Source of the DNA: Deltaproteobacteria bacterium
GTDB taxonomy: Bacteria > Desulfobacterota > Deferrimicrobia > Deferrimicrobiales > Deferrimicrobiaceae
Assembly (NCBI GenBank): GCA_016218975.1
Contig: JACRCO010000053.1
Location: 15,523-79,522, forward strand
DNA length: 64,000 bases
Direction: 5' to 3'
A program made the position numbers and the translations under genes. Shown one piece after another: positions 18,127 to 54,331 of the stretch (within the stretch, counting starts at the first letter, position 1; every line of letters starts with the position of its first letter). The notes beneath the pieces are model-generated. The model was not told the origin of the DNA and made no database searches. It saw only the letters and a list, made by a program, of their open reading frames with translations.

Positions 18127-19395
18127 TCAGTCCTTCGCGTGGCACTTGTTGCAGAACACACGCTGATACGTCGCAAACTGTGTTACCGGCCTGTCATAGT
18201 ATGCCGTCTTCCACTCGGCCATCGTCCGGCCGCGGTGCTGGAGCGGTGCACGGGAACTGGTCATGGCGGGGTTGTCGCTTCCCAGGTAATTCGAAGCGAC
18301 TGTCATGAATTCATAGCCGTTGTCGTAGCGAAGCATTTCCGCCACGCCGGAGGCATGCGCCCTGTGGCAGGACAGGCACATGACCTGGTCGGTGCTTCCC
18401 GGACCCGCTTTGAGGGCGGAGGAGCCGTTGTTTCCGGCAAGAGCCGCAAGGGCCGTGTAATCGCCGCTGTTCGTCGCGAACGGAGCAAGGGACGAGAACG
18501 CGGTCGCCGAGGTTCCGGTCAGGTCGCCGGATTTTACATAGGAGTTGTAGTTGGCTGCAATGGTGCTGCCGAGCGATTCATCGACCGGGTGCACGTAGTT
18601 GCCGCTGGAATGCATGGCGCCGTGGCAGGTCGCGCACCACTGCCCCCAGGTTACGTGCCCGCTGGCCGTGGCGACACCGTATGCTACGCGGACCTGGTTG
18701 TCGGCCTCGGTCTGGTTGTAGGACGACGGGGCCTTGGCGGCGGGAACGCCGTTGAAGGTTATCCCGTCTTTCGTGTATCCCGCGCCGGCCAGGAGCCTGT
18801 ACACGCCGACCGCCTCGGTCGCCGTAGGCTCGTTGCTGGTGCCGTTATAGGAACCGGAAGCCTTTATGGGTGCTCCGGTCTTCGCGATCGTGCCGCTCTG
18901 GAGTCTCCTGTACTGGCCGTGAGGGTCATGGCAGGAATTGCAGGCGAGCTGCGCGGAGGGGAATGTCCCGCCCGGGGCCGCGGCATTGATCGGATCCACT
19001 ACGTATCCGAAGTCGCCCGCGATGATGTTGTGGCCGTGGATCGCGCCATCCTCGGTATTGGTAGTACCCTGATACGTATAGGTGTAGGTCTTCCTCAGCC
19101 AGCCGAAGTCGCCGCCGGGAGTCCGGTTCACGGGCGACACGCCGTCGCCCATGGCGGAGGCGGTGGTGCTGATATGGTAGCTCGACAGCGTGGGCCCGTC
19201 GTGGCAGGTAAGACACGTGGAGCTCTGGTCCCCTCCGACAAGCAGGAAGGACCCGCCAGCCTTGGGGCTGTGCATGCTGTGGCAGCCTTCGCACTCGGCG
19301 ACGCCGCCCGAATGGAACGCGTAAGCCGTGGTGCCCATTCCGACCGCAAAAAGCGCGGCCGATAGAACGATAAGTGTGATCTTTGCCGCTTTCAT
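18127..19395 (-). CDS. omcS: OmcS-family hexaheme c-type cytochrome (nanowire-type)
   Basis: The mature N-terminus AFHSGGVAECEGCHSMHS matches my recollection of G. sulfurreducens OmcS (FHSGGVAECEGCHTMH). Conserved TPGGDFGW, GHNI, CNSCHDPHGQYRR, CLSCHRAHASG, YQRVFCNKCHAKD. Six CxxCH motifs. RBS GGAGGAGAA. Confidence 0.85.
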   Translation of the reverse strand: MKAAKITLIVLSAALFAVGMGTTAYAFHSGGVAECEGCHSMHSPKAGGSFLLVGGDQSSTCLTCHDGPTLSSYHISTTASAMGDGVSPVNRTPGGDFGWLRKTYTYTYQGTTNTEDGAIHGHNIIAGDFGYVVDPINAAAPGGTFPSAQLACNSCHDPHGQYRRLQSGTIAKTGAPIKASGSYNGTSNEPTATEAVGVYRLLAGAGYTKDGITFNGVPAAKAPSSYNQTEADNQVRVAYGVATASGHVTWGQWCATCHGAMHSSGNYVHPVDESLGSTIAANYNSYVKSGDLTGTSATAFSSLAPFATNSGDYTALAALAGNNGSSALKAGPGSTDQVMCLSCHRAHASGVAEMLRYDNGYEFMTVASNYLGSDNPAMTSSRAPLQHRGRTMAEWKTAYYDRPVTQFATYQRVFCNKCHAKD

Positions 19396-19417
19396 TTCTC
19401 CTCCTTCAGTTCTCCGG

Positions 19418-19500
19418 CAGCCCGGCCGTCCTTGCCTAACGCAAGCACCCGTTGGCTTTGTGCCCCCGCCTTGCGACAGGTTTACCTTTTTCGGAGGAGT
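19418..19500 (-). promoter_or_regulatory. GEMM-I (c-di-GMP/cGAMP class) riboswitch candidate in the omcS-like leader
   Basis: Minus-sense GGUAAACC-UGUC[GCAA]GGCGGG-GGCACAAAGCC aligns with the GEMM-I P1 (GNRA tetraloop) and the conserved GGGACGCAAAGCC region. A P2 hairpin GCUUGC-GUUAG-GCAAG follows. The RBS follows directly. Confidence 0.65.
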
Positions 19501-19599: not shown

Positions 19600-20589
19600 T
19601 CATTGCCGTCCCCCTTCCGTTCCGTAGGAAGACAGAGAAAAAACTGAAACCCCCCGGTTTCTCAACTGCGTCACGTACAGCTTTCCCGAATTGCCCACGG
19701 CCACTTCGTTCGGCCGAATCAGGTTCCAGGGTTTCTCTCCCCGGTATCCGAACTCCTGGACGAACCTGAATTCCCTGTCGAACACCATCACGACGCTGCG
19801 AAGCCGCTCGACCACCAGGTAATTGCCTTCGTCGTCGACCGCTATGCCGCTTATGACTCCGAACATTCCGGGAGCGGAACCGGACTTGCCGAAAGAGACG
19901 ATCAGCTTCCCTTCCGGCGACACTACGTACGCCTTGAAATGCACGGCGACCGTGAACAACATGTTCCCCGAACGATCCACGCTGAAACCGAAGATTTCGG
20001 TGGTCAGCCTGTCCTTCTCGGGAACATCGACGATCCGGCCGAAGTCATAACCTTTTTGGAATTTGCCGTTTCGATCGGTGACTATCGCCTGCATCCTGCT
20101 CGTGCTCACCAGGAGCAATTCCCCGCCGCGCATAAACATGCGGTTCGGGCAGAAACCATAAAAATCGCCCGGAAGACCGCCGATCCTGACCGTACCTTTC
20201 AGATCTCCGCGGTAATTGCACTTCGAAATCCAGTAATCGGGACCGTCTGCGGGGTGGCTGAAATCGAAGGAAAGGAGAAGCAGGTCACCCTTTTCATCGA
20301 CGGCGATATCGTAAATCGTGCCGAGCGCCCGATTATCGCCGAACCAGAACACTTCCATGCCGGTTTCGTTGAAAACCTTTACGATTCCGCGGTCAAGGAC
20401 GTATACCTCATCCCTTGCCCGGTCCACGTGAAGCCTTACATCGCTATAAGGAATCTTTCCCGAAAAATTAGAAAGGTTGTAAAGGTACGCGGACTTTACG
20501 TTCGTTGCGAACGCCGGGAAGGAACAAACCAGCAGAAGAAAGAAAGCCGGCAGAATCCTGATCGCTTGTTTTTTGTTGTAACTCCTCAT
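19600..20589 (-). CDS. NHL-repeat protein, secreted
   Basis: Signal peptide MRSYNKKQAIRILPAFFLLLVCSFPAFA. NHL-like repeats (GNYLVVERLRSVVMVFD, GKLYVTQLRNRGVSVF). Confidence 0.8.
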   Translation of the reverse strand: MRSYNKKQAIRILPAFFLLLVCSFPAFATNVKSAYLYNLSNFSGKIPYSDVRLHVDRARDEVYVLDRGIVKVFNETGMEVFWFGDNRALGTIYDIAVDEKGDLLLLSFDFSHPADGPDYWISKCNYRGDLKGTVRIGGLPGDFYGFCPNRMFMRGGELLLVSTSRMQAIVTDRNGKFQKGYDFGRIVDVPEKDRLTTEIFGFSVDRSGNMLFTVAVHFKAYVVSPEGKLIVSFGKSGSAPGMFGVISGIAVDDEGNYLVVERLRSVVMVFDREFRFVQEFGYRGEKPWNLIRPNEVAVGNSGKLYVTQLRNRGVSVFSLSSYGTEGGRQ

Positions 20590-20817
20590 GGCGAATCGTT
20601 ATCAGCAAGCCATATGCCAATCCAAATATAGGCATATTGGCCTTATATAACGACATGTTATGAGTTGCAGATTTCCGAAGGGACCGTTTTACGGGGAAAT
20701 AACGAGTGCAGCTTGGGGTTTTCACCGATGCCGGCTGATTTCAACAAACTGTCATATTTTTGACGCTTTGATATAAATTCCCACTATCGACCTTCCGAAA
20801 TATCCACGGGAGGCGCC

Positions 20818-22086
20818 ATGAAAACAATTTCGGACACCCCCTTATCGGCGGCATTCGTCATGACTGCACTTCTGGTTGCCTTCCCCATTCATCGAGCGGC
20901 AGCGTTCCACGCAGGAGGCGTGGGTGAGTGCTCAGGATGCCACTCCTCCCACAGCGCGGGGGCAAACAATCCCTTCCTTCTCGTTTCGGGCGACCCGAGT
21001 TCCACATGCCTCATGTGCCACATGCAGGCAGGAGAAACAGCCCCGAATGCGCATCACGTGGCAACCGACGAGTCGGACATGCCCTCAGGATCCCCTCCCG
21101 TACAGTTGACCCCCGGCGGAGATTTCGGATGGCTTAAGAAAAATTACAAATGGAATGCGGCCGACGGAGGGCCGGGCGGACAGAGCGCCGGCGAGCGGCA
21201 CGGGCATAACATCGTGGCAGCCGTTTACGGATTCGCGGCGGACACCACGCTGACGGCCGCCCCGGGGGGCGCCTACCCCGCAGCCGGTCTGTCCTGCACA
21301 AGCTGCCATGACCCCCACGGAAGATATCGCCGCCTGGCGGACGGAACCATACAATCCAAGGGATCGCCGGTAGTCGATTCTGGGTCGTACAAAACCAGCC
21401 CGGATCCCACGGAGACGACTGCGGTCGGCGTTTACAGGATGCTCGGCGGCAAGGGATACTCAAGGCCCGGGGCAAGCGAAACGTTCAACTTCGATCCTCC
21501 CGCGGCTGTCGCCCCGCCGGATTACAACCGGTCCGAAAGCGGTTCCGACACGCGGGTCGCCTACGGCGGCGGCATGTCGGAATGGTGCACGAATTGCCAC
21601 GGAGCCTACACCGGGAACCGCAACGCGCCCGGCCACCCGGCTGGAAGCCTCGTCAAGATGACGCCTCGCGCCGTCTCGAATTACAACGCATACGTGTCCT
21701 CCGGAAACGTCACCGGAACTTCTTCGACCGCCTACACGTCCCTCGTGCCGTTCGAAATGGGCACTTCCGATTACGCTCTCCTGAAAAAAGCGGCATCCAC
21801 GGACGGTTCGATGAAAGCGGGGCCGGATACCAACTCCAACGTGATGTGCGTCTCCTGCCACCGGGCGCACGCCTCCGCATGGGACCAGGCGGCCCGCTGG
21901 AACATGAAATCCGAATTCATCCTTTACAACGGAGACTATCCGGGCGCGGACAGGACCGATCTGCCCTTACGCATGTCACAGGGTCGCACGAAGACGGAAA
22001 CCAGGCGCGCTTACCATGAAAGACCGCCGATCGCTTTCGCGAGCTACCAGCGGACACTCTGCAACAAGTGCCACACCATGGATTGA
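20818..22086 (+). CDS. OmcS-family hexaheme c-type cytochrome, paralog
   Basis: AAFHAGGVGECSGCHSSHS, LTPGGDFGWLKK, GHNIVA, CTSCHDPHGRYRR, CVSCHRAHAS, YQRTLCNKCHTMD. RBS GGGAGG. Six CxxCH motifs. Confidence 0.85.
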   Translation: MKTISDTPLSAAFVMTALLVAFPIHRAAAFHAGGVGECSGCHSSHSAGANNPFLLVSGDPSSTCLMCHMQAGETAPNAHHVATDESDMPSGSPPVQLTPGGDFGWLKKNYKWNAADGGPGGQSAGERHGHNIVAAVYGFAADTTLTAAPGGAYPAAGLSCTSCHDPHGRYRRLADGTIQSKGSPVVDSGSYKTSPDPTETTAVGVYRMLGGKGYSRPGASETFNFDPPAAVAPPDYNRSESGSDTRVAYGGGMSEWCTNCHGAYTGNRNAPGHPAGSLVKMTPRAVSNYNAYVSSGNVTGTSSTAYTSLVPFEMGTSDYALLKKAASTDGSMKAGPDTNSNVMCVSCHRAHASAWDQAARWNMKSEFILYNGDYPGADRTDLPLRMSQGRTKTETRRAYHERPPIAFASYQRTLCNKCHTMD

Positions 22087-22263
22087 CCGGGGATTGACCG
22101 ATAGAATTAACATCGCGCATTCACCAATTGTGGGGAAATCCCCCTGCACAAGAGGGTATTTCGCCGAAAAAAACAATGTGATTCTTTCGATCCTGCTCCG
22201 CTCCTACGTTCAACATGCCGAATTATTAAAACAAACTTGCTATTGAAAATCCTTTTCTTTAAT

Positions 22264-22279
22264 AGGCATATAAATTGCT
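22264..22279 (+). promoter_or_regulatory. Sigma-54-like -24/-12 element (AGGCAT-N5-TTGCT)
   Basis: GG at 22265-66 and GC at 22277-78 have canonical spacing. The -12 GC lies ~14 nt upstream of ATG 22292, implying a nearly leaderless transcript. That is unusual. Confidence 0.3.
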
Positions 22280-22291
22280 CTCTTGCGGAGC

Positions 22292-22975
22292 ATGCTCGAA
22301 ACCGCCCTTAAACGGGTCCTCGTCGTCGACGACGACAACCTGATCTGCTGGGCTCTCGATAAGGAGTTCAACGGCTCCGGCCTGACATCGAATTCGGTGG
22401 AAAATATCGCGGATGCCCTCGAAGAATTGAAAAGGGAACACTACGACGTCGTGTTCCTCGACATCCGCCTGCCGGACGGAGACGGAATCGAAATACTGGC
22501 GGAGATCGGCAGGATATCGCCGGAGTCGCGAACCGTCGTCATGAGCGGAAACGCGAGCGAGGGAAACCGGCAAAGGGCGTTCGAACGGGGGGCGGTGAAA
22601 TTCCTCGAAAAACCTTTCGAGATCTCCGAGGCTCACGCCATATTGAGGGACGCATTGGCCGGACGGCTGAAGAAACGGCGGCATGTAAGGAACCCTTGCC
22701 GCGTCCCCTTGCGCATCACGATCGTGAAACCGTCCCCGGAGGAGGAGAGGTACAGCGTCACGAGCATACGGGCGGTTATGGCGGATGTGGGATTCGGAGG
22801 ATTCGGCATTCGGACGAAATATCTCCTGTCAGTCGGGCAATTCGTTCAGGCGCATGTCGACCCGGCGGGAGGGGATAACGTCATGAAGTATTTCACGCCG
22901 CAAACGACGGCCGAAGTGGTGTGGGTCGCGCCGTCCGTCGAAAGCTTAACGGCAGGCCTCAAGTTCGTTTCCTGA
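22292..22975 (+). CDS. Response-regulator receiver domain fused to a C-terminal PilZ domain (c-di-GMP binding)
   Basis: N-terminal KRVLVVDDD...DVVFLDIRLPDGDG receiver. C-terminal RRHVR...DVGFGGFGI matches PilZ RxxxR/DxSxGG. The track starts the ORF at TTG 22283; ATG 22292 is preferred. Confidence 0.7.
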   Translation: MLETALKRVLVVDDDNLICWALDKEFNGSGLTSNSVENIADALEELKREHYDVVFLDIRLPDGDGIEILAEIGRISPESRTVVMSGNASEGNRQRAFERGAVKFLEKPFEISEAHAILRDALAGRLKKRRHVRNPCRVPLRITIVKPSPEEERYSVTSIRAVMADVGFGGFGIRTKYLLSVGQFVQAHVDPAGGDNVMKYFTPQTTAEVVWVAPSVESLTAGLKFVS

Positions 22976-22990
22976 CCCGGACCGCCTGAC

Positions 22991-24375
<1,385 letters not shown>

Positions 24376-24379
<4 letters not shown>

Positions 24380-25830
24380 GTGGCCGTCTCCGCAGCAACG
24401 GCGGCGACGGGAAGCAGGATCCGGAACACCGTGCCGCCTCCCGGGTTGTCTGCGGCAGAAATTTCTCCGCCGTGCTGTTCGATCAGCTGTTTGGAAATGG
24501 CCAGTCCCAATCCAGTGCCCTTGGGCTTTGTCGTGAAGAACGGCTGGAAGATCTTTTCGATGTTTTCCCTCGGGATCCCCTTGCCGGTGTCGGCGAATTC
24601 GATCCGAAGGAAATCCGTTTCCTTTTCATGGGAGGTGCGCACCGAGAGCGTTCCCCCGTTGGGCATTGCATCCACGGCGTTCAGGACGAGGTTCAGGAAG
24701 ATCTGCTGGAGCTGCATGGGATCCGCCATCGTTTCCGGGAGCGGCTGAAGGTCCTTCTCTATACGGACGGCGTTCGGGCGGTCCGGCGCAGACGGGCGGC
24801 TTTTCATGTAAAAGGCAAGGACGGTGTTGACGAGGCTGTTTACGTTCAGATCCGCAAGCTGCGGCTTGGCCGGCTTGGCGAAGTTAAGGAAGTTCCTCAT
24901 CAGGGATTCCACGCGCACGACCTCCTGCGCGACTTTGCGGATGACTTCCCGGTCTTCCGCAGACATGCTCGTTTCCTCGGACAGAACGTGCATGGCCACC
25001 TTGATGCCCGCGAGCGGGTTCTTGATCTCGTGGGCAAGGCCCGCCGCCAGCTCGCCGACGATCACCATCTGCTCGGTCCGCTGCATCTTCAACATCTGTT
25101 CCTTGAGCGATGCCGCCATCTCGTTGAACGATGCAGCCAGCTCTCCGAATTCGTCCTTCAGGGCCTCGACCCGGTGATCCAGGTTTCCGGCTTTCAGCTT
25201 TCTCGTCGAATCGAGCAGCACGTTGACCGGGTTCGTCAGCCCGGACAGGAATATGTAGCCGAGGAACGCCGACATCAACGGGCCGATCCCGACGAGGAAA
25301 TACAGCATATACTTCGTCCGCGCGATGCGGATCATCGCCCTTTGCGTATTCTCCGCAAGCTTCGAGCTCGTGATCGCGATCACGTCCCGGACCTTGCCGA
25401 TCAGGTCCTCTCCGATCTGGAAGGCCGCATCCTCCTCCGCCAGGATCCTTGCGGTGTTCGCGCGAAGCGTCAGCACGCGGCTCAATGCGTCCTTGTAGGT
25501 CTCCGTCTGCTTTTTCAGGTCCTGGAGCCTCTCGGTCGCCTGCTGGTTGTGATGGCAGTCGAAACAGGTATCTACGATCCTTCCCATGCTGACGACGTTC
25601 TGGACGACGGTGTCGAAAGTACGCTTATGCCGCGTGTCCTTGAGGGTCAGGTCCGTTTGGACCCTTTTTACCTGCAGCAGGTAGTGCTCCCTCAGGATTT
25701 CCACCTGGTGGAGCGTTATCAGCCTGTCGAGCTCAGTCGTCGCGGACTGGATGATGTAGATGATGTAGATGCCGCAGAGGAGAAAAAACAGCGTATAGAT
25801 GCCAAGGCCGATGATTATCTTCTTCTTCAT
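24376..25830 (-). CDS. Sensor histidine kinase (TM, periplasmic domain with one CxxCH, TM, HAMP, HisKA, HATPase)
   Basis: TM1 IIIGLGIYTLFFLLCGIYII. Periplasmic loop contains VDTCFDCHHN (about 25552..25566). TM2, HAMP, H-box LAAGLAHEIKNPL, G-boxes DTGKGI / GTGLGLAIS. Overlaps the regulator gene by 4 nt. Confidence 0.85.
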
Positions 25831-26797: not shown

Positions 26798-27706
26798 TCA
26801 GTCATTTATGTAGTCGTAGGTGGCGAGGCTCAGGCCGGCTTCTTTTGCATACCTTGCCACGGACTCGTAATCCTTGTTCGTGGTCTCGACGAATCTCCGC
26901 GCACCGAACTGCTCCAGCACCGACTTTCCCCTGGCGTCGAGGTGCATGTTCAGGAGCGCATCCTTCAAACCGGTTCGGAAGGAATCTTCGATATCCTTCC
27001 GGAGCGCCAGGGAGTTTTCCGGCATGTCGGGGGATGTTTCCAGGATCGACAACTCTCTTTTTATCCGCGGGTCGGATACCGCGACCCGGTTGAACACCGT
27101 GTTCTTCGACGCGCCTATGTCGGCCTTCCTGTTGAGCACATCGAAGATCGCGTCCTCGTGCGTTCCCGTAAAATAACCCTCCTTGAGATATTTTCTCCAA
27201 TCGATTCCCTTCTCATGGAAATATTTCAGGGGGAAAAGATAACCGGCGGTCGTCGCCTTGTCCACGAAAGCGAACCGCTTCCCTTTCATGCCGTCGATCG
27301 TCCTGATCCCGCTGTCCTTCCTTACGAAAATCATCCCGTGGTAGGTGGATGTGTTGTCGTTGTATTCCGGACGCGCAAGGACTTCCACCCCAAGCTTCGC
27401 GTGGGCAAGCGCGTACGTGAAACTCCCGAAAAATGCGCCGTCCAGCCCCGACATCCTGAAATTGTCGATGATGTTCCCGTACCTCGGGAGAATTTTAAGA
27501 GATATATTCATCCCGGTTTTCGCGGAGAGATACGCGGCCACGGGTTCGTATCTCTCCAACTGCTTGAATATGTTCTGCTCCGGTATCAGCCCGATAAGGA
27601 CGGTCTTCCGGTTGACCGCCGGGGATCTTGAAGGAGGATTGTCCTGGCTGCACCCTGCCGCAATAACAACTCCCAGGATAACGATAAAAGCCGATCTCCG
27701 GAACAT
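26798..27706 (-). CDS. PhnD/SsuA-like periplasmic substrate-binding lipoprotein, tandem paralog
   Basis: Same motifs as the 25840..26748 gene (LIGLIPEQNIFKQLERYEP...). Visibly similar at the DNA level. Confidence 0.8.
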   Translation of the reverse strand: MFRRSAFIVILGVVIAAGCSQDNPPSRSPAVNRKTVLIGLIPEQNIFKQLERYEPVAAYLSAKTGMNISLKILPRYGNIIDNFRMSGLDGAFFGSFTYALAHAKLGVEVLARPEYNDNTSTYHGMIFVRKDSGIRTIDGMKGKRFAFVDKATTAGYLFPLKYFHEKGIDWRKYLKEGYFTGTHEDAIFDVLNRKADIGASKNTVFNRVAVSDPRIKRELSILETSPDMPENSLALRKDIEDSFRTGLKDALLNMHLDARGKSVLEQFGARRFVETTNKDYESVARYAKEAGLSLATYDYIND

Positions 27707-42138: not shown

Positions 42139-43536
42139 TTAGAACCCCTTCACGTACGCCTTCGTCCCGCCCTTCTGGTGGCACTTTCCGCAACCGAAGG
42201 TCGGGTTGTCGCCGACTGATGCTCCGGCAACCCAGGCGGTTCCGTTCCAGGTCTGGCCTTCCACATCCGCTCCCCCGTTCGGAAGGAACGCGTGGCCGTT
42301 GGTATCCCATCGTGTCATGTTCTCGAAACTGGATGCGTGCGCCTTGTGGCAGGTGAGGCACGAAAGCCGATCGTTGCCAGACAGCGTGGCGGGATCGGCG
42401 GCCGAAGCCGAAGTGCTCAGCACGGCGAAGTCCGCGTCCGCCTTGATGAGCGGATACCGGAAGTCGTAGCCGACCGGGTTAGGGTTGTTTGCCTGGGCGT
42501 TGGTGACGGTGGCCTTATAAGTGGTGATGCCGTATTTCCTGCTTGTCGGCGTCATATCCATTTTCAGGTTGGTCGGATGCTTCATCCAGACACCGGCGGT
42601 TTGGGTCTTGTCTGTCCCGCCTTCGGTCTGCTCGGTGCCGTGGAAATCCCCGTGGCATGCGGAGCAGAAGGAGGAGAAGCCGCCCTGGTAGACGTTCTTG
42701 TTCGTGTCGCTGTAATCGACAAAGAGGTCCGCGCCCTGGAGATCCTTGCCGTCCTGGCGCTTGTTGACGTAGGTCGTTCCCTGGATGTCGCCGCGGGAGT
42801 TCGACTTGATAGGCTCGTAAGCGGTGTTCTGGGTCTCGCCGCCCGCCGATGTCTCCACGCCGAACGATGTTACGTTGCCGGTAACCACGACGCCGTTCAC
42901 CTTCCGCTTGATCTGCCGCCATGCCGTGTAGCTGCCGCTGAACCGGGAGTGCATCCCGTGGCAGGAGTGGCAGGACCACTCGCCGTCCGTGATGGTGCCG
43001 CCCGGAGGCGCGTTCCCGAGAACCGTGTCAGCCGCCATCAGTTTGGAGGTGGGGCTTGCGGATCCCTTGGTATACGCCGGGTTGTGCCCTTTCTTCGGGT
43101 CCAAATTGGACTGATAGAAGTCGCCCGCAGGCATGGAGATGCCGGCCGGAATGGCGCCGGTGAGCGTCATGACGATCGGGGCGGTCCAGCCTGTGTTCTC
43201 CACGCCCACGAGATCGGCGGATGCGGAAGTGTTGTACCCCTGCTTGTGGCAGGAAAGGCACATATCGGTCCAGTCGCCCTTTTTCAGCAATTCGCGGTAA
43301 GACCCGCCCGCGCCGGGATTCCAGTCCGTGGCGCCGCCGTCCTGTAGCTTGTTACCGGATATGCGGGCGCCGCCATCGCTGTTGTGCAAGGTGTGGCAGT
43401 CCGTGCAGACGAGGCCGTCATAGGAGTGATACTGTGCCGTATTGGGACCGGCGCCCGTCGTCTGGCTGGGCACCGCCGCAATCGCCGGCGCGGCCGTCAG
43501 GGCCGCAATCGCGATCGATAGCAAGAATTTTTTCAT
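42139..43536 (-). CDS. Hexaheme c-type cytochrome, family B paralog
   Basis: ATG 43536 with GGAGGA RBS. MKKFLLSIAIAALTAAPAIAA signal peptide. Same motif set as the 40712..42052 gene. The 867-aa track ORF is a read-through extension. Confidence 0.85.
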   Translation of the reverse strand: MKKFLLSIAIAALTAAPAIAAVPSQTTGAGPNTAQYHSYDGLVCTDCHTLHNSDGGARISGNKLQDGGATDWNPGAGGSYRELLKKGDWTDMCLSCHKQGYNTSASADLVGVENTGWTAPIVMTLTGAIPAGISMPAGDFYQSNLDPKKGHNPAYTKGSASPTSKLMAADTVLGNAPPGGTITDGEWSCHSCHGMHSRFSGSYTAWRQIKRKVNGVVVTGNVTSFGVETSAGGETQNTAYEPIKSNSRGDIQGTTYVNKRQDGKDLQGADLFVDYSDTNKNVYQGGFSSFCSACHGDFHGTEQTEGGTDKTQTAGVWMKHPTNLKMDMTPTSRKYGITTYKATVTNAQANNPNPVGYDFRYPLIKADADFAVLSTSASAADPATLSGNDRLSCLTCHKAHASSFENMTRWDTNGHAFLPNGGADVEGQTWNGTAWVAGASVGDNPTFGCGKCHQKGGTKAYVKGF

Positions 43537-43556
43537 TGCATCCTCCGAAGTTTTCT

Positions 43557-43640
43557 CTGGCGGCCCGGCCGTCCTTCCATCGAAGGATCCGTGGGCTTTG
43601 CGTCCCCCGATTACTCGAGGTTTGCCTTTTTCAGAGGATT
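43557..43640 (-). promoter_or_regulatory. GEMM-I (c-di-GMP/cGAMP class) riboswitch candidate in the leader of the family-B hexaheme gene
   Basis: Minus-sense GGCAAACC-UCGA[GUAA]UCGGGG-GACGCAAAGCC aligns base-for-base with the Vc2-type GEMM-I P1 and core. P2 hairpin UCCUUC-GAUG-GAAGGA covaries with the 19418..19500 copy. The P1 overlaps the stop codon of the upstream NHL gene. Confidence 0.7.
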
Positions 43641-44675
43641 GTTGGGTGTTGACTGCGAAGCGATCCGTCGTTCCTGCGAATTTTCCGTGCACGCCGTTTT
43701 CGTTTCCTGCACCACCTCCTTCTCCTTGAGAAATCGAACCTTGAACACCTGCACACGCTTGAGCGTGTTCTCCAGTACGTAGATACGGTCCCTTCCGTCC
43801 GAGGCGATCCGGGAGGGCATGTAGAACTGGCCGTACCCCTCCCCGATCTTTCCGAACTCCTCGATGAACTCCCCCTCCCGGTCGAAGCAGGAGACCTTGT
43901 TGGTGACCGTGCTGACTACGAAGATATGGCCCGCATCGTCGGCGGCGATGCCGATGGGACGGTCGAGCTGGCCGTAGAGAACGCCGGGCGATCCGAAACG
44001 CTTGAATGTTTTTCCCCTGGGGTCGTAGATCACGACGGAATAGGGGCGCATGTCCGTAAAGAGAAACCGGCCGTTCCGATCGACGGCCATCCCGTAAATG
44101 GTGTTCGGCGCCCCCTCGCCGGAGATGGGGATCTCCTCGTGCGCCACGCCGTCGGGGTCCACCTTGACCACCCCCCCCCGCGTCTTGAGCACGTAGATTC
44201 CGCCGCTCCCCCCGTTGGCGATGGCCATTGGGCGGACGGCGCTTCCGGGCGCGTCTACGATCCCGGGGAGAAGAAGCGCGTCCAGGGGGTTCCCGCGGAA
44301 ATCGAGGATGCTGATCTTCGGGCTGTTCACGTGGCCGAGAAACATCCTTCCCTCGGCGTCCACCGCGACCATCCTCGCCGACCCTTCCTTCTCGCCGGGG
44401 TCGATCGCCTGCACGAACATGCCGTTCCGGTCGTATATAAGGATCTTCCGGATGGCGGCGTCCGCGATGTAGAGTTCGCCGGTTTTCCTGTCGACGAAGA
44501 TGTCCATCGGCTCCCGGAGCCTGTCGGAGCGCCCGCCTGCGTACTCGATCGCATAGAGGAACTCGACGCTCAGGAGGCCGCGATCCGTTCCCGCGGCCGG
44601 GGAGGGCGTTGCAGGCCATGGAATCATGAGGATCGCAAGGATGAGCAGAGCGGGAATTTTCAATCTCGACGGCAT
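43611..44675 (-). CDS. NHL-repeat protein, secreted
   Basis: Probable start ATG 44675 (MPSRLKIPALLILAILMIPWPATPSPAAG). NHL-like repeats (GELYIADAAIRKILIYD, GRFLFTDMRPYSVVIYD, GHIFVVSTVTNKVSCFD, DRIYVLENTLKRVQVF). Confidence 0.8.
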   Translation of the reverse strand: MPSRLKIPALLILAILMIPWPATPSPAAGTDRGLLSVEFLYAIEYAGGRSDRLREPMDIFVDRKTGELYIADAAIRKILIYDRNGMFVQAIDPGEKEGSARMVAVDAEGRMFLGHVNSPKISILDFRGNPLDALLLPGIVDAPGSAVRPMAIANGGSGGIYVLKTRGGVVKVDPDGVAHEEIPISGEGAPNTIYGMAVDRNGRFLFTDMRPYSVVIYDPRGKTFKRFGSPGVLYGQLDRPIGIAADDAGHIFVVSTVTNKVSCFDREGEFIEEFGKIGEGYGQFYMPSRIASDGRDRIYVLENTLKRVQVFKVRFLKEKEVVQETKTACTENSQERRIASQSTPNNPLKKANLE

Positions 44676-44786
44676 GACGCCCAAAGGTTTTGCATCGGGC
44701 ATGCCGCTTGCCCACGCCACCTGCAACCGCCCGATAATTCAAAGGGTTTAAAAAATCAGTCGAGACCGGTTACCCTCCTCGAAATC

Positions 44787-44876
44787 CGAAATGAACAAAC
44801 CTTTTGTTCATTTCGACAACGTATCGAAACGGAAACAATTGCGGCGGAAGGTTACGGATTCGGAAACGTGCGCAAT
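44787..44876. promoter_or_regulatory. 29-bp perfect palindrome plus three GGAAAC direct repeats in a divergent intergenic region
   Basis: CGAAATGAACAAA-cct-TTTGTTCATTTCG (44787..44815), then cgaaacGGAAACAATTGcgg and ttcGGAAACgtgcgcaat. GGAAACAATTG recurs as its reverse complement at 54343..54353. Confidence 0.3.
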
Positions 44877-44973
44877 ATCGCCCTCGTCGGGATATCGACC
44901 CGAATTTTCAGGAGATAATCGGCTTTTGAAAGCAGGAATTCCATCCGGCACGCCGATTGCGTATAAAAACGGC

Positions 44974-45366
44974 ATGACTTCGATGAAGGTATTGATCGTG
45001 GATGACAACCAGTTGCTGTGCTGGGGGCTCGGCAAAACACTTTCGAAGCGTGGCATCATCCATCACGCGGTGGAGAACGGGACCGACGCACTCTCCGAAA
45101 TTCGCAGCGCCTTCTACGATCTTGTTTTTCTCGACATAAAACTTCCGGATGCGAACGGGCTGGACCTGTTGCCGGTAATCCGCGGGATCTCTCCCGGAAC
45201 GAAAGTCGTCGTCATCAGTTCCAACGGGTCGGAAAGCAATGTACGCCGGGCGATGGCTGCGGGCGCCGTCCGGTTCATGGAAAAACCGTACACCTGCGAG
45301 GAGCTTGCGGAAGCGCTCGAAGCGGTCTTCCCCCGGAAATCCGAAGGGAAGCCTGCAAGCAAGTAG
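44974..45366 (+). CDS. Single-domain CheY-like response regulator
   Basis: MTSMKVLIVDDNQLL...LVFLDIKLPDANG...VVVISS...K receiver signature. The 44791 N-extension falls inside the palindrome and is probably not coding. Confidence 0.7.
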   Translation: MTSMKVLIVDDNQLLCWGLGKTLSKRGIIHHAVENGTDALSEIRSAFYDLVFLDIKLPDANGLDLLPVIRGISPGTKVVVISSNGSESNVRRAMAAGAVRFMEKPYTCEELAEALEAVFPRKSEGKPASK

Positions 45367-45370
45367 CCCC

Positions 45371-46759
45371 CTATTCCAACCCGAATTTCTTTATCTGGTA
45401 CCTCAGCGACTGATACGTGACGTTCAGGAGTTTCGCCGCCACCGACTTGTTCTGCCTGCTTCTGTCCAGCGCCTGCACGATGAAATCCCTTTCCACGTCA
45501 TCGAGCGAGATTCCCGATTCGGGCAGCAGGAACCGCACTTCGTTTCCGCTTTCCGGTGACGGCAGCGTGCGAACCATCTCCTTCGGCAGGTGTTCCGGCC
45601 GGATCGTATCCGCATTCTCCAGCACGACGAGCCTTTCGATCACGTTTTTCAATTCCCTGACGTTTCCGGGCCACCGGTAGGTCGTCAGCATTTTCGCGGC
45701 CTCCGGGGAAAATCCTTCCACGTTGCACTTGTTATATCTTTTACGGAAGTAGGAAAGGAAATGCTCCGCAAGGACGGGAATATCCTCCCTACGCTCCCTC
45801 AACGGAGGGATGTTGATGGAAAACGCGTTGAGCCGGTAATAGAGATCCATGCGGAAATCGCCCGTTTCGATCCCCTTCACCAGGTCCCGGTTCGTCGTGG
45901 CGATGACGGCGACGTCGACCGGGATCTCCGACCCGCCCCCGATCCTGCGCACCGCTTTCCGCTCCACGATCCGCAACAGCTTCGTCTGGCAGTTCTGCTT
46001 CATGTCGCCGATCTCGTCGAGAAGAATCGTCCCCTTGTTCGCCATTTCAAAGACGCCTTTTTTATCCGCCTTCGCGTCGGTGAAGGCGCCCTTTTCGTAC
46101 CCGAAGAGCTCGCTCTCCAGGAGAGATTCCGGCAGGGCGGTGCAGTTGACGGGGATGAAAGGCGCCCGCCGGGATGCTTCCTCCCCGTGGATCGACCGGT
46201 GGAGGAACCTCGCGATCACTTCCTTCCCCGTGCCGCTTTCCCCGGTGATAAGCAGCGTGGAAACACGCGCCTGCACCATCTTCCGGATCTTTTCCCGGAT
46301 CTCGCCCGCGGCATCGGAAGCGCCTATGAACTCCGCTTCCGAAAGGTCCGAATGGACAAGCCGGAGGGACTGGACCTCCCGCTCGAGCCGGTCTTTCTCG
46401 AAAACCTTGTCGATGACGATTCCGACCTCTTCGAGGTTGAACGGCTTGGTCAGGTAGTCCACGGCGCCCAGTTTCATCGCCTTGATCGCCGTTTCGGCGG
46501 TGTCGTCCGAGGTAAGCATGATCACCTTCGTATCGATCCGGCTGGCGGTGATTTCCTGGAGGATCTCGATGCCGTTCTTCACGGGCAGCTTTATGTCCAG
46601 GAGGACGATGTCGGGAAGGAACGAGTTGACCAGCCCGAGGACGTCATCGCATTTCGTGTCGGGTTGGATCTCGTATCCCTGCTTCCTGAACCATCTCGAC
46701 AGCGTGGCGACGATCAGCGGATCGTCGTCGACGAGCATTATCTTTCCTCTCGCCGTCAT
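45371..46759 (-). CDS. Sigma-54-dependent response regulator (NtrC family), paralog of the 22991..24379 gene
   Basis: Receiver (IMLVDDDPLIV), AAA+ (GESGTGKE, ESELFGYEKGAFTDA), C-terminal HTH. Confidence 0.9.
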   Translation of the reverse strand: MTARGKIMLVDDDPLIVATLSRWFRKQGYEIQPDTKCDDVLGLVNSFLPDIVLLDIKLPVKNGIEILQEITASRIDTKVIMLTSDDTAETAIKAMKLGAVDYLTKPFNLEEVGIVIDKVFEKDRLEREVQSLRLVHSDLSEAEFIGASDAAGEIREKIRKMVQARVSTLLITGESGTGKEVIARFLHRSIHGEEASRRAPFIPVNCTALPESLLESELFGYEKGAFTDAKADKKGVFEMANKGTILLDEIGDMKQNCQTKLLRIVERKAVRRIGGGSEIPVDVAVIATTNRDLVKGIETGDFRMDLYYRLNAFSINIPPLRERREDIPVLAEHFLSYFRKRYNKCNVEGFSPEAAKMLTTYRWPGNVRELKNVIERLVVLENADTIRPEHLPKEMVRTLPSPESGNEVRFLLPESGISLDDVERDFIVQALDRSRQNKSVAAKLLNVTYQSLRYQIKKFGLE

Positions 46760-48216
46760 CCCGGTTTCCCTTCTTCCTCCACCGTTTTTCGCGGAAGAAC
46801 GATCCGGACAAGGATGCCCCCCGCCGGATTGTTCCCCACGGTGATATCGCCGCCGTGCTGCCCGATGAGCTGCCTGCAGATCGCGAGTCCAAGACCGGTC
46901 CCCTTCGATTTCGTGGTGAAGAAGGGCTGGAAAATCTTGCAGATCATGTCCGGGTCGATTCCCTTGCCCGTGTCCGTGATGTCGATCAGGATGGAATCGC
47001 CGGAGACGTCGTAGTGGGTTCCCACGGCGAACATGCCCCCGCCCGGCATGGCGTCGATGGAATTCAGGAGCAGGTTCAGGAAGACCTGCTGGAGCTGGAC
47101 CGGGTCGGCCATCGTCAAGGGAATCCGGTCGTCAAGGTCCTTGACGATCCGGATGCCGTTTTGCCCTTCGGGGGAAGAACGGTTGGATTTCAGGTAGAAA
47201 TCTATCGTCGTGGCGATGATTTCGTTCAGATCGACGCTCTCCCACTGCGGCTTGGGAGGCTTGGCGAAGTTGAGGAAATTCTTCATCAGGGTTTCGAGCC
47301 TGCCCACTTCGTCGACGATCTGCGAAAAGAGGATCCGGTCCTCGTTCCGCAGCGTCAGTTCCTCGGAGAGCAGGTTCACCGCCGCCTTGATCCCGGCGAG
47401 CGGGTTCTTCACCTCGTGCCCCAATCCCGCCGCCAATTCCCCGACAACCGCCATCTGTTCCGTCCGCTGCATCTGGAGCATCTGCTCCTTGAGGGATCTC
47501 GCCATTTTGTTGAAGGAAGCAGACACCTCCCCGAACTCGTCCTTCAGTCCCTCGATCCGGTAATCGAGATCGCCGCTCTCCAGTCTCCGCGTGGCGGTGA
47601 GAAGCTCGTTCATGGGGCGCGCCAGTCCCCGTATGGACACATACGCGAAGATGACCGAGAAGACGGGTCCCGCCGCGATAAGGACGAAGAGCATCGTCTT
47701 CATCAGCGCAATCTGGCGGAACGCCACCTGGGTGTTCGACGAAAGGTTCCTGCTCGTCAGGGCGACTATGCTGTTCACCTTTTCGATCAGCCCCTGCCCC
47801 GTTACGATGGCGCGGTCCTTCTCGGTCTCCAGCCGGTCGCTCCCTGCGCCGAGCGTCAACACGCGGCTTAAGGCATCCTTGTAATTCTCCGTCATGCGCT
47901 TCAGGTCGTTCAGGTTTTCCAACACCTCGGGCGAGTGGTGGCACGTGAAACACTTGTCGGCCACTTTCCCCATGTGAATGCTGTGGGTCACGATGGTATC
48001 GACGCTGCTGGCGTACCGCGTTCCGCTCAAGGTGAGGTCGGACTGCACGCCCTTGATATGGATCAGCAGGTGTTCCCGGAGAATTTCGACCTGGTGCAGC
48101 TTGATGAGCTTGTCGAGCTTCGAAGTCGCCCGTTCGACGGTGACGATGATGTAGATTCCGCAAAGCGTGAACAGGAAACAGATTACACCCAGGGCGATGA
48201 TGATCTTCTTTTTCAT
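46756..48216 (-). CDS. Sensor histidine kinase with CxxCH in the periplasmic loop, paralog of the 24376..25830 gene
   Basis: N-terminal MKKKIIIALGVICFLFTLCGIYII. Periplasmic KVADKCFTCHHS (about 47938..47952). H-box LAAGLGHEVKNPL, HATPase G-boxes. Confidence 0.85.
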   Translation of the reverse strand: MKKKIIIALGVICFLFTLCGIYIIVTVERATSKLDKLIKLHQVEILREHLLIHIKGVQSDLTLSGTRYASSVDTIVTHSIHMGKVADKCFTCHHSPEVLENLNDLKRMTENYKDALSRVLTLGAGSDRLETEKDRAIVTGQGLIEKVNSIVALTSRNLSSNTQVAFRQIALMKTMLFVLIAAGPVFSVIFAYVSIRGLARPMNELLTATRRLESGDLDYRIEGLKDEFGEVSASFNKMARSLKEQMLQMQRTEQMAVVGELAAGLGHEVKNPLAGIKAAVNLLSEELTLRNEDRILFSQIVDEVGRLETLMKNFLNFAKPPKPQWESVDLNEIIATTIDFYLKSNRSSPEGQNGIRIVKDLDDRIPLTMADPVQLQQVFLNLLLNSIDAMPGGGMFAVGTHYDVSGDSILIDITDTGKGIDPDMICKIFQPFFTTKSKGTGLGLAICRQLIGQHGGDITVGNNPAGGILVRIVLPRKTVEEEGKPG

Positions 48217-54116: not shown

Positions 54117-54331
54117 CAAACCGAACCTCCTTTGTCTGTGCGTTTCTATCGATCGATCCCGAAAAGCTTCAACTGCTTCCTGAGATGTTGAAAAAAACAA
54201 TTTTGATTTATCCAGAGGGATTCTCAGCAATCGGCATGCCGATTATGGCAGGCGGAAGCGCTGACGAATTTTCAAACTATTATCGAAAGGTTAGGGGGCG
54301 AATGACTGAGACGTCTCACTGCAGGCAAGTT

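Follow-up and report, generated by a model that had tools for sequence, protein, structure and literature searches.

A conserved sigma-54-type promoter abutting the start codon of receiver-PilZ genes in OmcS-type cytochrome clusters, with a predicted leaderless transcript

How close to a start codon can an enhancer-dependent sigma-54 promoter lie, and what kind of messenger RNA (mRNA) would it then produce? The question is raised by a locus within a window of 64,000 nucleotides (nt; the whole stretch of DNA analysed, from contig JACRCO010000053.1 of a 'Deltaproteobacteria bacterium' metagenome-assembled genome (MAG)), in which a motif of the -24/-12 type stands directly before a gene for a CheY-type receiver fused to a PilZ domain, in the company of OmcS-type cytochrome genes. 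Taking the whole chain together, we think it likely that an activator-dependent sigma-54 promoter gives a leaderless receiver-PilZ mRNA in a conserved OmcS-type cytochrome module. A broader proposal, towards which our results incline only slightly, is that such promoters form a conserved class, hard-wired to the start codon and creating leaderless mRNA, with the -12-to-AUG spacing and the C(-1)/A(+1) step selected in at least three gene families (receiver-PilZ, stand-alone receiver and secreted beta-propeller) belonging to the OmcS-cytochrome clusters of an uncultured Deferrimicrobiaceae-like lineage. The elements on which the question turns are the following.

22264-22279, + strand: sigma-54-type -24/-12 promoter AGGCATATAAATTGCT, GG-N10-GC with TTGCT, conserved in orthologues
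22289-22292, + strand: predicted transcription start zone, placed from promoter geometry, 11-14 nt after the C of GC
22292-22975, + strand: receiver-PilZ response regulator gene, 227 amino acids (aa), from Pfam, motifs and AlphaFold2 (AF2) models
22316-22645, + strand: receiver domain, residues 9-118 (Response_reg PF00072, E 2.5e-24)
22673-22969, + strand: PilZ domain, residues 128-226 (PF07238, E 2.8e-7, 31.2 bits against a cut-off of 22.5)

A sequence-only reading of this DNA had described AGGCAT-N5-TTGCT, with exact -24/-12 spacing, about 14 nt before the ATG, and both statements hold. In AGGCATATAAATTGCT, the GG (22265-66) and the GC (22277-78) are spaced exactly as GG-N10-GC and the -12 element is TTGCT; 12 nt separate the end of the motif at 22279 from the ATG at 22292, and 14 nt lie from the C of GC to A22292. 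The -24 element is AGGCAT rather than TGGCAC, and the core matches TGGCAC-N5-TTGCW at 9 of 12 positions (GGCA and TTGCT). Across the window, GGCAY-N5-TTGCW occurs four times against 0.37 expected, a count reached in 0 of 100 shuffles, and all four matches are intergenic and oriented towards the downstream gene.

The same reading had cautioned that the promoter might be coincidental given so short a leader, that is, a chance resemblance in an AT-rich intergenic region with the gene transcribed from elsewhere; the unusually short leader and the departure from consensus at 3 of the 12 core positions would both suit such an explanation. The tenfold enrichment of the motif in the window speaks against it, and the comparison of orthologous loci does so more directly. 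We fetched 22 orthologous loci encoding proteins of 37-66% identity (23 sites with that of the window); the receiver-PilZ family as a whole comprises about 80 proteins of 218-235 aa, all from metagenomes or MAGs, one relative being labelled Candidatus Deferrimicrobiaceae. GG(C/T)A(C/T)-N5-TTG(C/T) precedes the receiver-PilZ gene, in the same place, in 22/22 of these loci. The GG is invariant in 23/23 sites, TTGC is found in 22/23 and the GG-N10-GC spacing in 23/23 (once with GT for GC), giving a family consensus of GGCAT(A/G)-N4-TTGCT. In an alignment of the 65-nt neighbourhood anchored at the motif, only GG-A and TTGC carry appreciable information, the content elsewhere being close to zero, and the 11-15 nt between TTGCW and the start codon are themselves unconserved. 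In addition, an enhancer-like pair of boxes is kept at a fixed distance, and in many loci the gene is divergent from its neighbour, so the promoter must lie in a spacer of 250-350 bp. Because the motif is kept in every orthologous locus while its flanks diverge, the doubt about coincidence is removed, and chance resemblance is scarcely credible.

The short distance that had given rise to that doubt is also conserved. From the C of GC to the start codon there are 13 nt in six loci, 14 in eight, 15 in five, 16 in three and 17 in one, so that the near-leaderless geometry noted earlier for this one genome proves to be a property of the orthologues at large. A pyrimidine immediately precedes the start codon in all 23 loci (C in 17), and the start codon itself is ATG in 19 and GTG in four related ones (L084, L085, L087 and L088). 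None of the 23 loci has a GGAG-like Shine-Dalgarno element at usable spacing; such elements are present at the two neighbouring OmcS genes of the window.

20818-22086, + strand: OmcS homologue OmcS_a, full-length (PDB 6ef8, E 2e-118), Shine-Dalgarno GGGAGG
18127-19395, - strand: OmcS homologue OmcS_b, full-length (PDB 6ef8, E 4e-108), Shine-Dalgarno GGAGGAG

Which RNA polymerase reads the conserved block is a separate matter. The block might be a sigma-70-type promoter, the site of some other factor, or a sigma-54 roadblock or repressor site, and the N5 spacer is indeed AT-rich in most orthologues (TATAAA, TTTAAT, TAAATA), TATAAA being a conceivable -10 box. Conservation, however, peaks on GG and TTGC and not on the spacer, and a scan of the intergenic region for sigma-70-type promoters found no -35/-10 pair on the + strand. 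A -10 box at 22270-75 would moreover put the start at about 22282 and leave an 8-10-nt leader devoid of a ribosome-binding site, which is no improvement, and boxes at -110/-133 together with an adjacent AAA+ activator are the signature of sigma-54 control. Reading by sigma-70 or another factor is hence quite improbable. A permissive Rfam scan of the intergenic region before the receiver-PilZ gene detected no RNA element; with both scans negative, a sigma-70 promoter and an RNA element in the 5' untranslated region (UTR) were dropped as candidates for this interval.

The boxes and the regulatory genes next to the promoter are arranged as follows.

22132-22143, no strand assigned: palindromic box 1 (distal) GGGGAAATCCCC, starting 133 bp upstream of the promoter GG
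22154-22165, no strand assigned: palindromic box 2 (proximal) GGGTATTTCGCC, at -111 from GG; orthologues at -112/-110
22991-24379, - strand: NtrC-type sigma-54 enhancer-binding response regulator with receiver (REC), AAA+ and HTH_8 domains (Sigma54_activat, E 1.6e-61)
24376-25830, - strand: sensor histidine kinase with HAMP, HisKA and HATPase_c Pfam domains and an invariant CxxCH in a periplasmic loop
25840-26748 and 26798-27706, - strand: two genes for PhnD-like periplasmic binding proteins (Phosphonate-bd, E 8e-59), upstream of the kinase in conserved synteny

Two boxes about 21 bp apart, roughly 110-135 bp before the -24 element, are the classical layout for enhancer-binding proteins. Upstream of the motif, a 12-bp box of the form GG(G/T)nAwwTnnCC recurs at fixed offsets, with box 1 and box 2 about 21-22 bp, or about two helical turns, apart. 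Palindromes of the type GGnnWnnWnnCC cluster at -140 to -110 from GG, and 21 of the 23 loci have at least one between -160 and -100 against 11% expected (binomial ~1e-18). From this arrangement, boxes 1 and 2 are probable binding sites of an enhancer-binding protein. The regulator at 22991-24379, a convergent neighbour of the receiver-PilZ gene with a Fis-type helix-turn-helix (HTH), a Walker A motif and the loop sequence GSFTDA, is the probable activator of the receiver-PilZ promoter, and synteny of the block of activator, kinase and binding protein is conserved across all loci that extend far enough to include it. Since the window holds three genes for sigma-54 activators, sigma-54 must be in use in this genome, which very likely encodes rpoN. 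Overall, we are highly confident that 22264-22279 is a real sigma-54 promoter.

The position of the start codon is constrained from several sides. One might suppose that it is mis-assigned and that the true start lies elsewhere behind a normal leader, the more so as gene callers disagree on the starts of paralogous receivers (127-182 aa). In the receiver-PilZ gene, however, the first strand and acidic pocket of the receiver occupy residues 8-15, and no in-frame ATG, GTG or TTG lies between 22292 and the pocket (D13-D15); therefore the start is not further downstream. The only other candidate, a TTG at 22283, falls inside the promoter. Extension upstream meets stop codons or the promoter in most orthologues, an alternative in-frame start codon is absent from most orthologous loci, N-terminal lengths agree across more than 70 family members, and the paralogous family keeps only the ATG 14 nt from the C in every locus. 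We consider a mis-assigned start very improbable.

How long, then, would the leader be? By convention, the GC of a sigma-54 promoter is placed at -13/-12. Our estimate of the distance from GC to the transcription start draws on what is generally known of such promoters and on a statement from differential RNA sequencing (dRNA-seq) of C. jejuni, in which GGaa-N6-tTGCTt lies 8-13 nt upstream of mapped starts (PMC3847290); the start would therefore fall about 10-15 nt after the C. Transcription starts favour a purine after a pyrimidine (PMC12403871), and C22291/A22292 is such a step, located at the start codon. By this geometry, the first base of the start codon, A or G, could plausibly serve as +1 in 19 of the 23 loci (those with 13-15 nt), and a leader of 2-5 nt is more likely in the 16-17-nt loci and at the propeller promoters described below. 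Messages with up to 5 nt ahead of the start codon count as leaderless by the operational definition (Beck and Moll, cited in PMC12754779), and we hold with good confidence that the predicted receiver-PilZ mRNA is among them.

The promoter could be real and most of the protein nevertheless come from a longer mRNA, produced by read-through from OmcS or from an unrecognised upstream promoter and translated by internal initiation independent of a Shine-Dalgarno element, with little of the protein owed to the sigma-54 transcript. OmcS_a, on the same strand, ends 205 nt upstream with no terminator-like hairpin in between, and leaderless GUG starts, which four orthologues would have, work inefficiently in E. 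coli. Against this, at least 10 loci have a divergent neighbour and no same-strand upstream gene and still show the same geometry; no orthologue has a Shine-Dalgarno element, so a long transcript would be translated no better; and the pyrimidine kept ahead of the start accords with selection for the initiating dinucleotide and not for a ribosome-binding site. We therefore regard a longer mRNA as the main source of the protein as unlikely, and retain initiation at or just before the start codon as the preferred explanation.

The layout recurs at genes of other families, first at the beta-propeller gene on the other side of OmcS_a.

20715-20726, no strand assigned: palindromic box GGGGTTTTCACC, 97 bp upstream of the beta-propeller promoter
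20604-20618, - strand: second sigma-54-type promoter GGCATATGGCTTGCT, 16 nt (C to A) before ATG 20589 of the propeller gene
19600-20589, - strand: NHL-like beta-propeller gene, divergent, with a start-codon-abutting promoter

In all 15 loci that hold the propeller gene, GGCAY-N5-TTGCN is followed at 14-17 nt by cATG. The start context is often TC(G/A)CC-ATG, and the R of TC-R-CC-ATG is 14 nt from the C. In many loci the receiver-PilZ and propeller promoters are divergent, with a distance of about 250 bp between the two, and the palindromic boxes lie in that interval. A second, paralogous module in the window (42139-48216) is ordered as cytochrome <- riboswitch <- propeller / stand-alone receiver / activator <- kinase, and its elements are these.

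43556-43636: c-di-GMP-I riboswitch (c-di-GMP, cyclic di-GMP) of the paralogous module
43611-44675, - strand: second beta-propeller gene, paralogous module
44691-44705, - strand: divergent promoter GGCATGCCCGATGCA, 17 nt before ATG 44675; same layout in L161, L162 and L165
44947-44961, + strand: paralogous promoter GGCACGCCGATTGCG, 14 nt (C to A) before ATG 44974
44974-45366, + strand: stand-alone receiver paralogue with a start-codon-abutting promoter
45371-46759: second sigma-54 activator, paralogous module
46756-48216, - strand: second kinase, paralogous module, with CxxCH

For the stand-alone receiver, nine loci fetched via seven homologues yielded seven distinct sequences, and all seven show GGYAC-N5-(A/T)TTGC, then 12 nt, then ATG. 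The near-leaderless geometry is accordingly no accident of one genome. We read the start-codon-abutting promoter as a designed feature of the module family and not an accident, because the same layout drives both the divergent propeller gene and the paralogous module at 44.7-45.4 kb.

Short leaders might instead be a habit of sigma-54 promoters throughout this lineage, and the remaining motifs of this type in the window bear on that.

54226-54240, - strand: further sigma-54-type motif, leader of about 110 nt, multihaem cytochrome
344-358, - strand: further sigma-54-type motif, leader of about 150 nt, secreted protein
1260-1274, + strand: further sigma-54-type motif, leader of about 55 nt, open reading frame of 1694 aa
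54425-55792, - strand: third sigma-54 activator gene, directly upstream of the motif at 54226-54240

A lineage-wide habit was rejected, since other sigma-54 promoters, in the window and in related loci, have leaders of about 55-150 nt, several with a Shine-Dalgarno element; the abutting layout is therefore specific to these gene families. In four of the receiver-paralogue loci the divergent gene is of another type, and there its sigma-54 motif stands some 70 nt upstream and an evident AAGGAG(G) precedes its ATG.

Several observations weigh against a sigma-54-driven leaderless mRNA. The core of AGGCATATAAATTGCT has A for T, T for C and A for G at its three mismatched positions, one orthologue has TTGT, and rpoN is not within the 64-kb window. 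The activators carry GAFTDA or GSFTDA and not the canonical GAFTGA, and the palindromes are assigned to the adjacent activator through guilt by association. A spacing of 16-17 nt, found in 4 of the 23 loci and at most propeller promoters, exceeds the usual start position and implies a 2-5-nt leader, which is not strictly leaderless. GTG is the start codon of four orthologues, and in E. coli it serves leaderless messages poorly (O'Donnell and Janssen, cited in PMC3616915). The window and four other loci have an upstream same-strand OmcS gene with no recognisable terminator, and a read-through transcript from OmcS could also carry the receiver-PilZ gene. Finally, every source is an uncultured metagenome assembly.

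With these points in mind, the route from signal to protein that we favour would run as follows. Sigma-54 RNA polymerase would bind GG(-24)/GC(-12) at 22265-22278, where the motif, its spacing and its conservation are seen directly. The kinase (24376-25830), probably a haem sensor working with the PhnD-like proteins, would phosphorylate the NtrC-type regulator (22991-24379), and the phosphorylated regulator, as the presumed binder of the boxes at 22132-22165, would open the promoter by ATP hydrolysis. Transcription would then begin at a pyrimidine-purine step located 11-14 nt past the C, either on A22292 or just ahead of it, and the resulting mRNA, with a leader of 0-5 nt, would be translated by the leaderless route, through 70S or IF2-dependent recognition of the 5'-proximal AUG. 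Its receiver-PilZ product may integrate the same two-component signal with c-di-GMP, the other outputs of the cluster being OmcS-type cytochromes. Under the broader proposal of a conserved promoter class, expression of these genes would require two unusual steps in series, activator-driven opening of the promoter and translation initiation independent of a Shine-Dalgarno element. A haem-sensing kinase in control of nanowire cytochromes would then have in the receiver-PilZ protein either a second output gated by c-di-GMP or a phosphate sink.

Both the sigma-54 promoter and the leaderless mRNA are familiar, and the usual accounts of them concern different organisms and different classes of promoter, leaderless genes having been tied to -10 elements. 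In the open-access literature that we searched, which yielded mainly transcriptome papers, we found no description of a sigma-54-dependent leaderless mRNA, which is not proof of novelty. Like the classical sigma-54 promoters (glnAp2/NtrC, nifH/NifA and those of Geobacter RpoN), the promoters described here have GG and GC one helical turn apart, a TTGCW -12 element, paired upstream sites about 110-135 bp from the -24 element, and an adjacent REC-AAA+-HTH_8 activator with its kinase; the consensus for the classical promoters is mrNrYTGGCACG-N4-TTGCWNNw (quoted in PMC2725144). They differ in that the start codon comes 13-17 nt after the -12 C, with no 5' UTR predicted and no Shine-Dalgarno element. 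Ribosome-binding sites are included in the drawings of those G. sulfurreducens RpoN promoters that primer extension has mapped (PMC2725144). With the leaderless mRNAs of sigma-70 or sigmaA promoters (lambda cI, Deinococcus, Mycobacterium and Myxococcus pexR; PMC12754779), the genes described here share a start codon at most 5 nt from the 5' end (here a predicted one), the lack of a Shine-Dalgarno element, a pyrimidine(-1)/purine(+1) step and an occurrence at small regulator genes. Those leaderless genes are described with a -10 element, often the extended TGnTA (PMC4842269), and the -10 box is adjacent to the open reading frame (PMC12340547). In the present genes, by contrast, what adjoins the start codon is a sigma-54 site of the -24/-12 type, which stays silent unless an ATP-driven activator acts on it. 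A conserved case of this kind in several gene families would offer a natural system for studying the start point of sigma-54 polymerase and how strictly it is fixed, and a test of whether leaderless translation, GUG starts included, operates in a Desulfobacterota-type bacterium that uses Shine-Dalgarno elements.

It would also carry a warning for annotation, the start of the paralogous receiver having been placed at five or more different codons by gene callers. Their versions of the stand-alone receiver measure 127, 129, 146, 149, 156, 161 or 182 aa, as though the programs had been searching for a ribosome-binding site where there is none. In the window, it is annotated with 146 aa from TTG 44926, and the only start kept everywhere is the ATG 14 nt after the -12 C (44926-44974; P0112-P0169).

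The identification of the protein as a CheY-receiver fused to PilZ, made in the sequence-only reading, is borne out by Pfam, motifs and fold alike. Among 34 family sequences, D13, D14, D57 and K107-P108 of the receiver are invariant and S85 is found in at least 90%. The closest solved receivers are those of NtrC and NtrC1, which suggests that this receiver may derive from the activator's own receiver and perhaps competes with it for the adjacent kinase. Pfam matches to PilZ were obtained in 34/34 family members scanned (E <= 0.001; best E 1.2e-9), and to the receiver in all of them as well. The arginines of the RxxxR motif (R129 and R133) are invariant in the 34 sequences; in the second motif, D165-x-G-x-x-G170, D165 is found in at least 90% and G170 is invariant, and the Ser position of (D/N)xSxxG is Gly in most members (DVGxGG) and Ser in a few. 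An AF2 model of the PilZ part alone is a six-stranded beta-barrel with a predicted local distance difference test (pLDDT) score of 82. In a Foldseek search against the PDB, the first 45 matches to this model are all PilZ domains at template modelling (TM) scores of about 0.6-0.67, among them BcsA, PP4397, VCA0042, MotI, YcgR, Alg44, PA0012, MapZ and MrkH; sequence searches of the PilZ part against the PDB, with the single sequence and with a profile, gave nothing meaningful. Binding of c-di-GMP by this domain is likely, though not assured, on the strength of these motifs, and the PilZ domains of PixB in M. xanthus also do without that Ser (PMC8316039).

The nearest described architecture is that of PixA in Myxococcus xanthus (PMC8316039), likewise a single polypeptide combining a phosphorylatable receiver with an RxxxR PilZ domain and having no DNA-binding or enzymatic output. 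The order of domains is reversed, with REC N-terminal and PilZ C-terminal here and PilZ followed by REC in PixA; the second PilZ motif is DxGxxG here rather than (D/N)xSxxG; and pixA is an orphan, whereas the receiver-PilZ gene of the window adjoins a kinase/activator pair.

The cluster around the gene reads, in order, YncE-like propeller <- OmcS_b <- riboswitch <- NHL-like propeller / receiver-PilZ / activator <- kinase <- binding protein. The surroundings described in the sequence-only reading, an OmcS paralogue and an omcS-like gene under riboswitch control, are confirmed by the two full-length OmcS homologues and by an aptamer directly before 18127-19395.

19412-19495, - strand: c-di-GMP-I-GGC riboswitch aptamer (60.8 bits against a gathering score of 59), between the propeller gene and OmcS_b

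The aptamer ends 16 nt before the ATG of OmcS_b, and its 3' strand runs into the Shine-Dalgarno element GAAGGAGGAG (window 19395-19495, - strand), which suggests that control of OmcS_b may be translational rather than by termination. It lies within the operon, after the beta-propeller gene, without an obvious promoter of its own. The position of OmcS_a varies between loci, upstream or downstream of the receiver-PilZ gene: its placement in L003, L090, L092, L093 and L096 differs from that in the window, L002, L082, L085 and L087. In the window, the insertion of OmcS_a separates the divergent promoters, and boxes remain on both sides (20715; 22132/22154). A search with the beta-propeller protein returned only environmental relatives among the matches listed (best 120), without reaching Geobacter.

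The omcS locus of G. sulfurreducens consists of GSU2504 (omcS), GSU2505, GSU2506 (a sigma-54-dependent regulator) and GSU2507 (a sensor kinase) (PMC10599522, PMC11077965), and shares with the cluster described here OmcS-family cytochromes beside a sigma-54 activator/kinase pair and, in front of an OmcS-like gene, a riboswitch of the GEMM-I type (cyclic GMP-AMP (cGAMP)/c-di-GMP-I type in G. sulfurreducens). Supplementary data to the Geobacter RpoN paper list only omcS up-regulation and the GSU2506-2507 operon. The two loci differ in the input domain of the activator (PAS there, receiver here), in the kinase (a Cache domain there, a CxxCH loop here), in the added receiver-PilZ gene and in the host, here a Deferrimicrobiaceae-like uncultured lineage. 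Outside Geobacter, then, OmcS-type 'nanowire' cytochromes have a regulatory module that is compact and widely conserved: two divergent promoters with paired enhancer boxes, a CxxCH kinase and its neighbouring sigma-54 activator, the receiver-PilZ protein, and a cyclic-dinucleotide riboswitch.

The two modules of the window have different upstream palindromes. That of the paralogous module is longer, taking the form TGTTGAAAnCAAC...GTTGnTTTCAACA about 110-140 bp before the receiver promoter in L163, L167, L170 and L172, and GAAATGAACAAA-cc-TTTTGTTCATTTC at 44790-44825 of the window, a difference compatible with a separate enhancer sequence for each activator paralogue. The loop sequences GAFTDA or GSFTDA, with Asp for the second Gly of the sigma-54-contacting loop, are found in all activators of both modules (window 23700-23740 and 46080-46120, both - strand; L001-L170). 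On the sensor side, C-x-x-C-H(-H) at residue 89 is invariant in both kinases of the window (24376-25830 and 46756-48216, both - strand) and in the seven orthologues checked (L001, L002, L003, L085, L088, L161 and L170), in a predicted periplasmic stretch between two membrane helices. These kinases are probably sensors with a covalent c-type haem that respond to redox state or a ligand and control the OmcS clusters.

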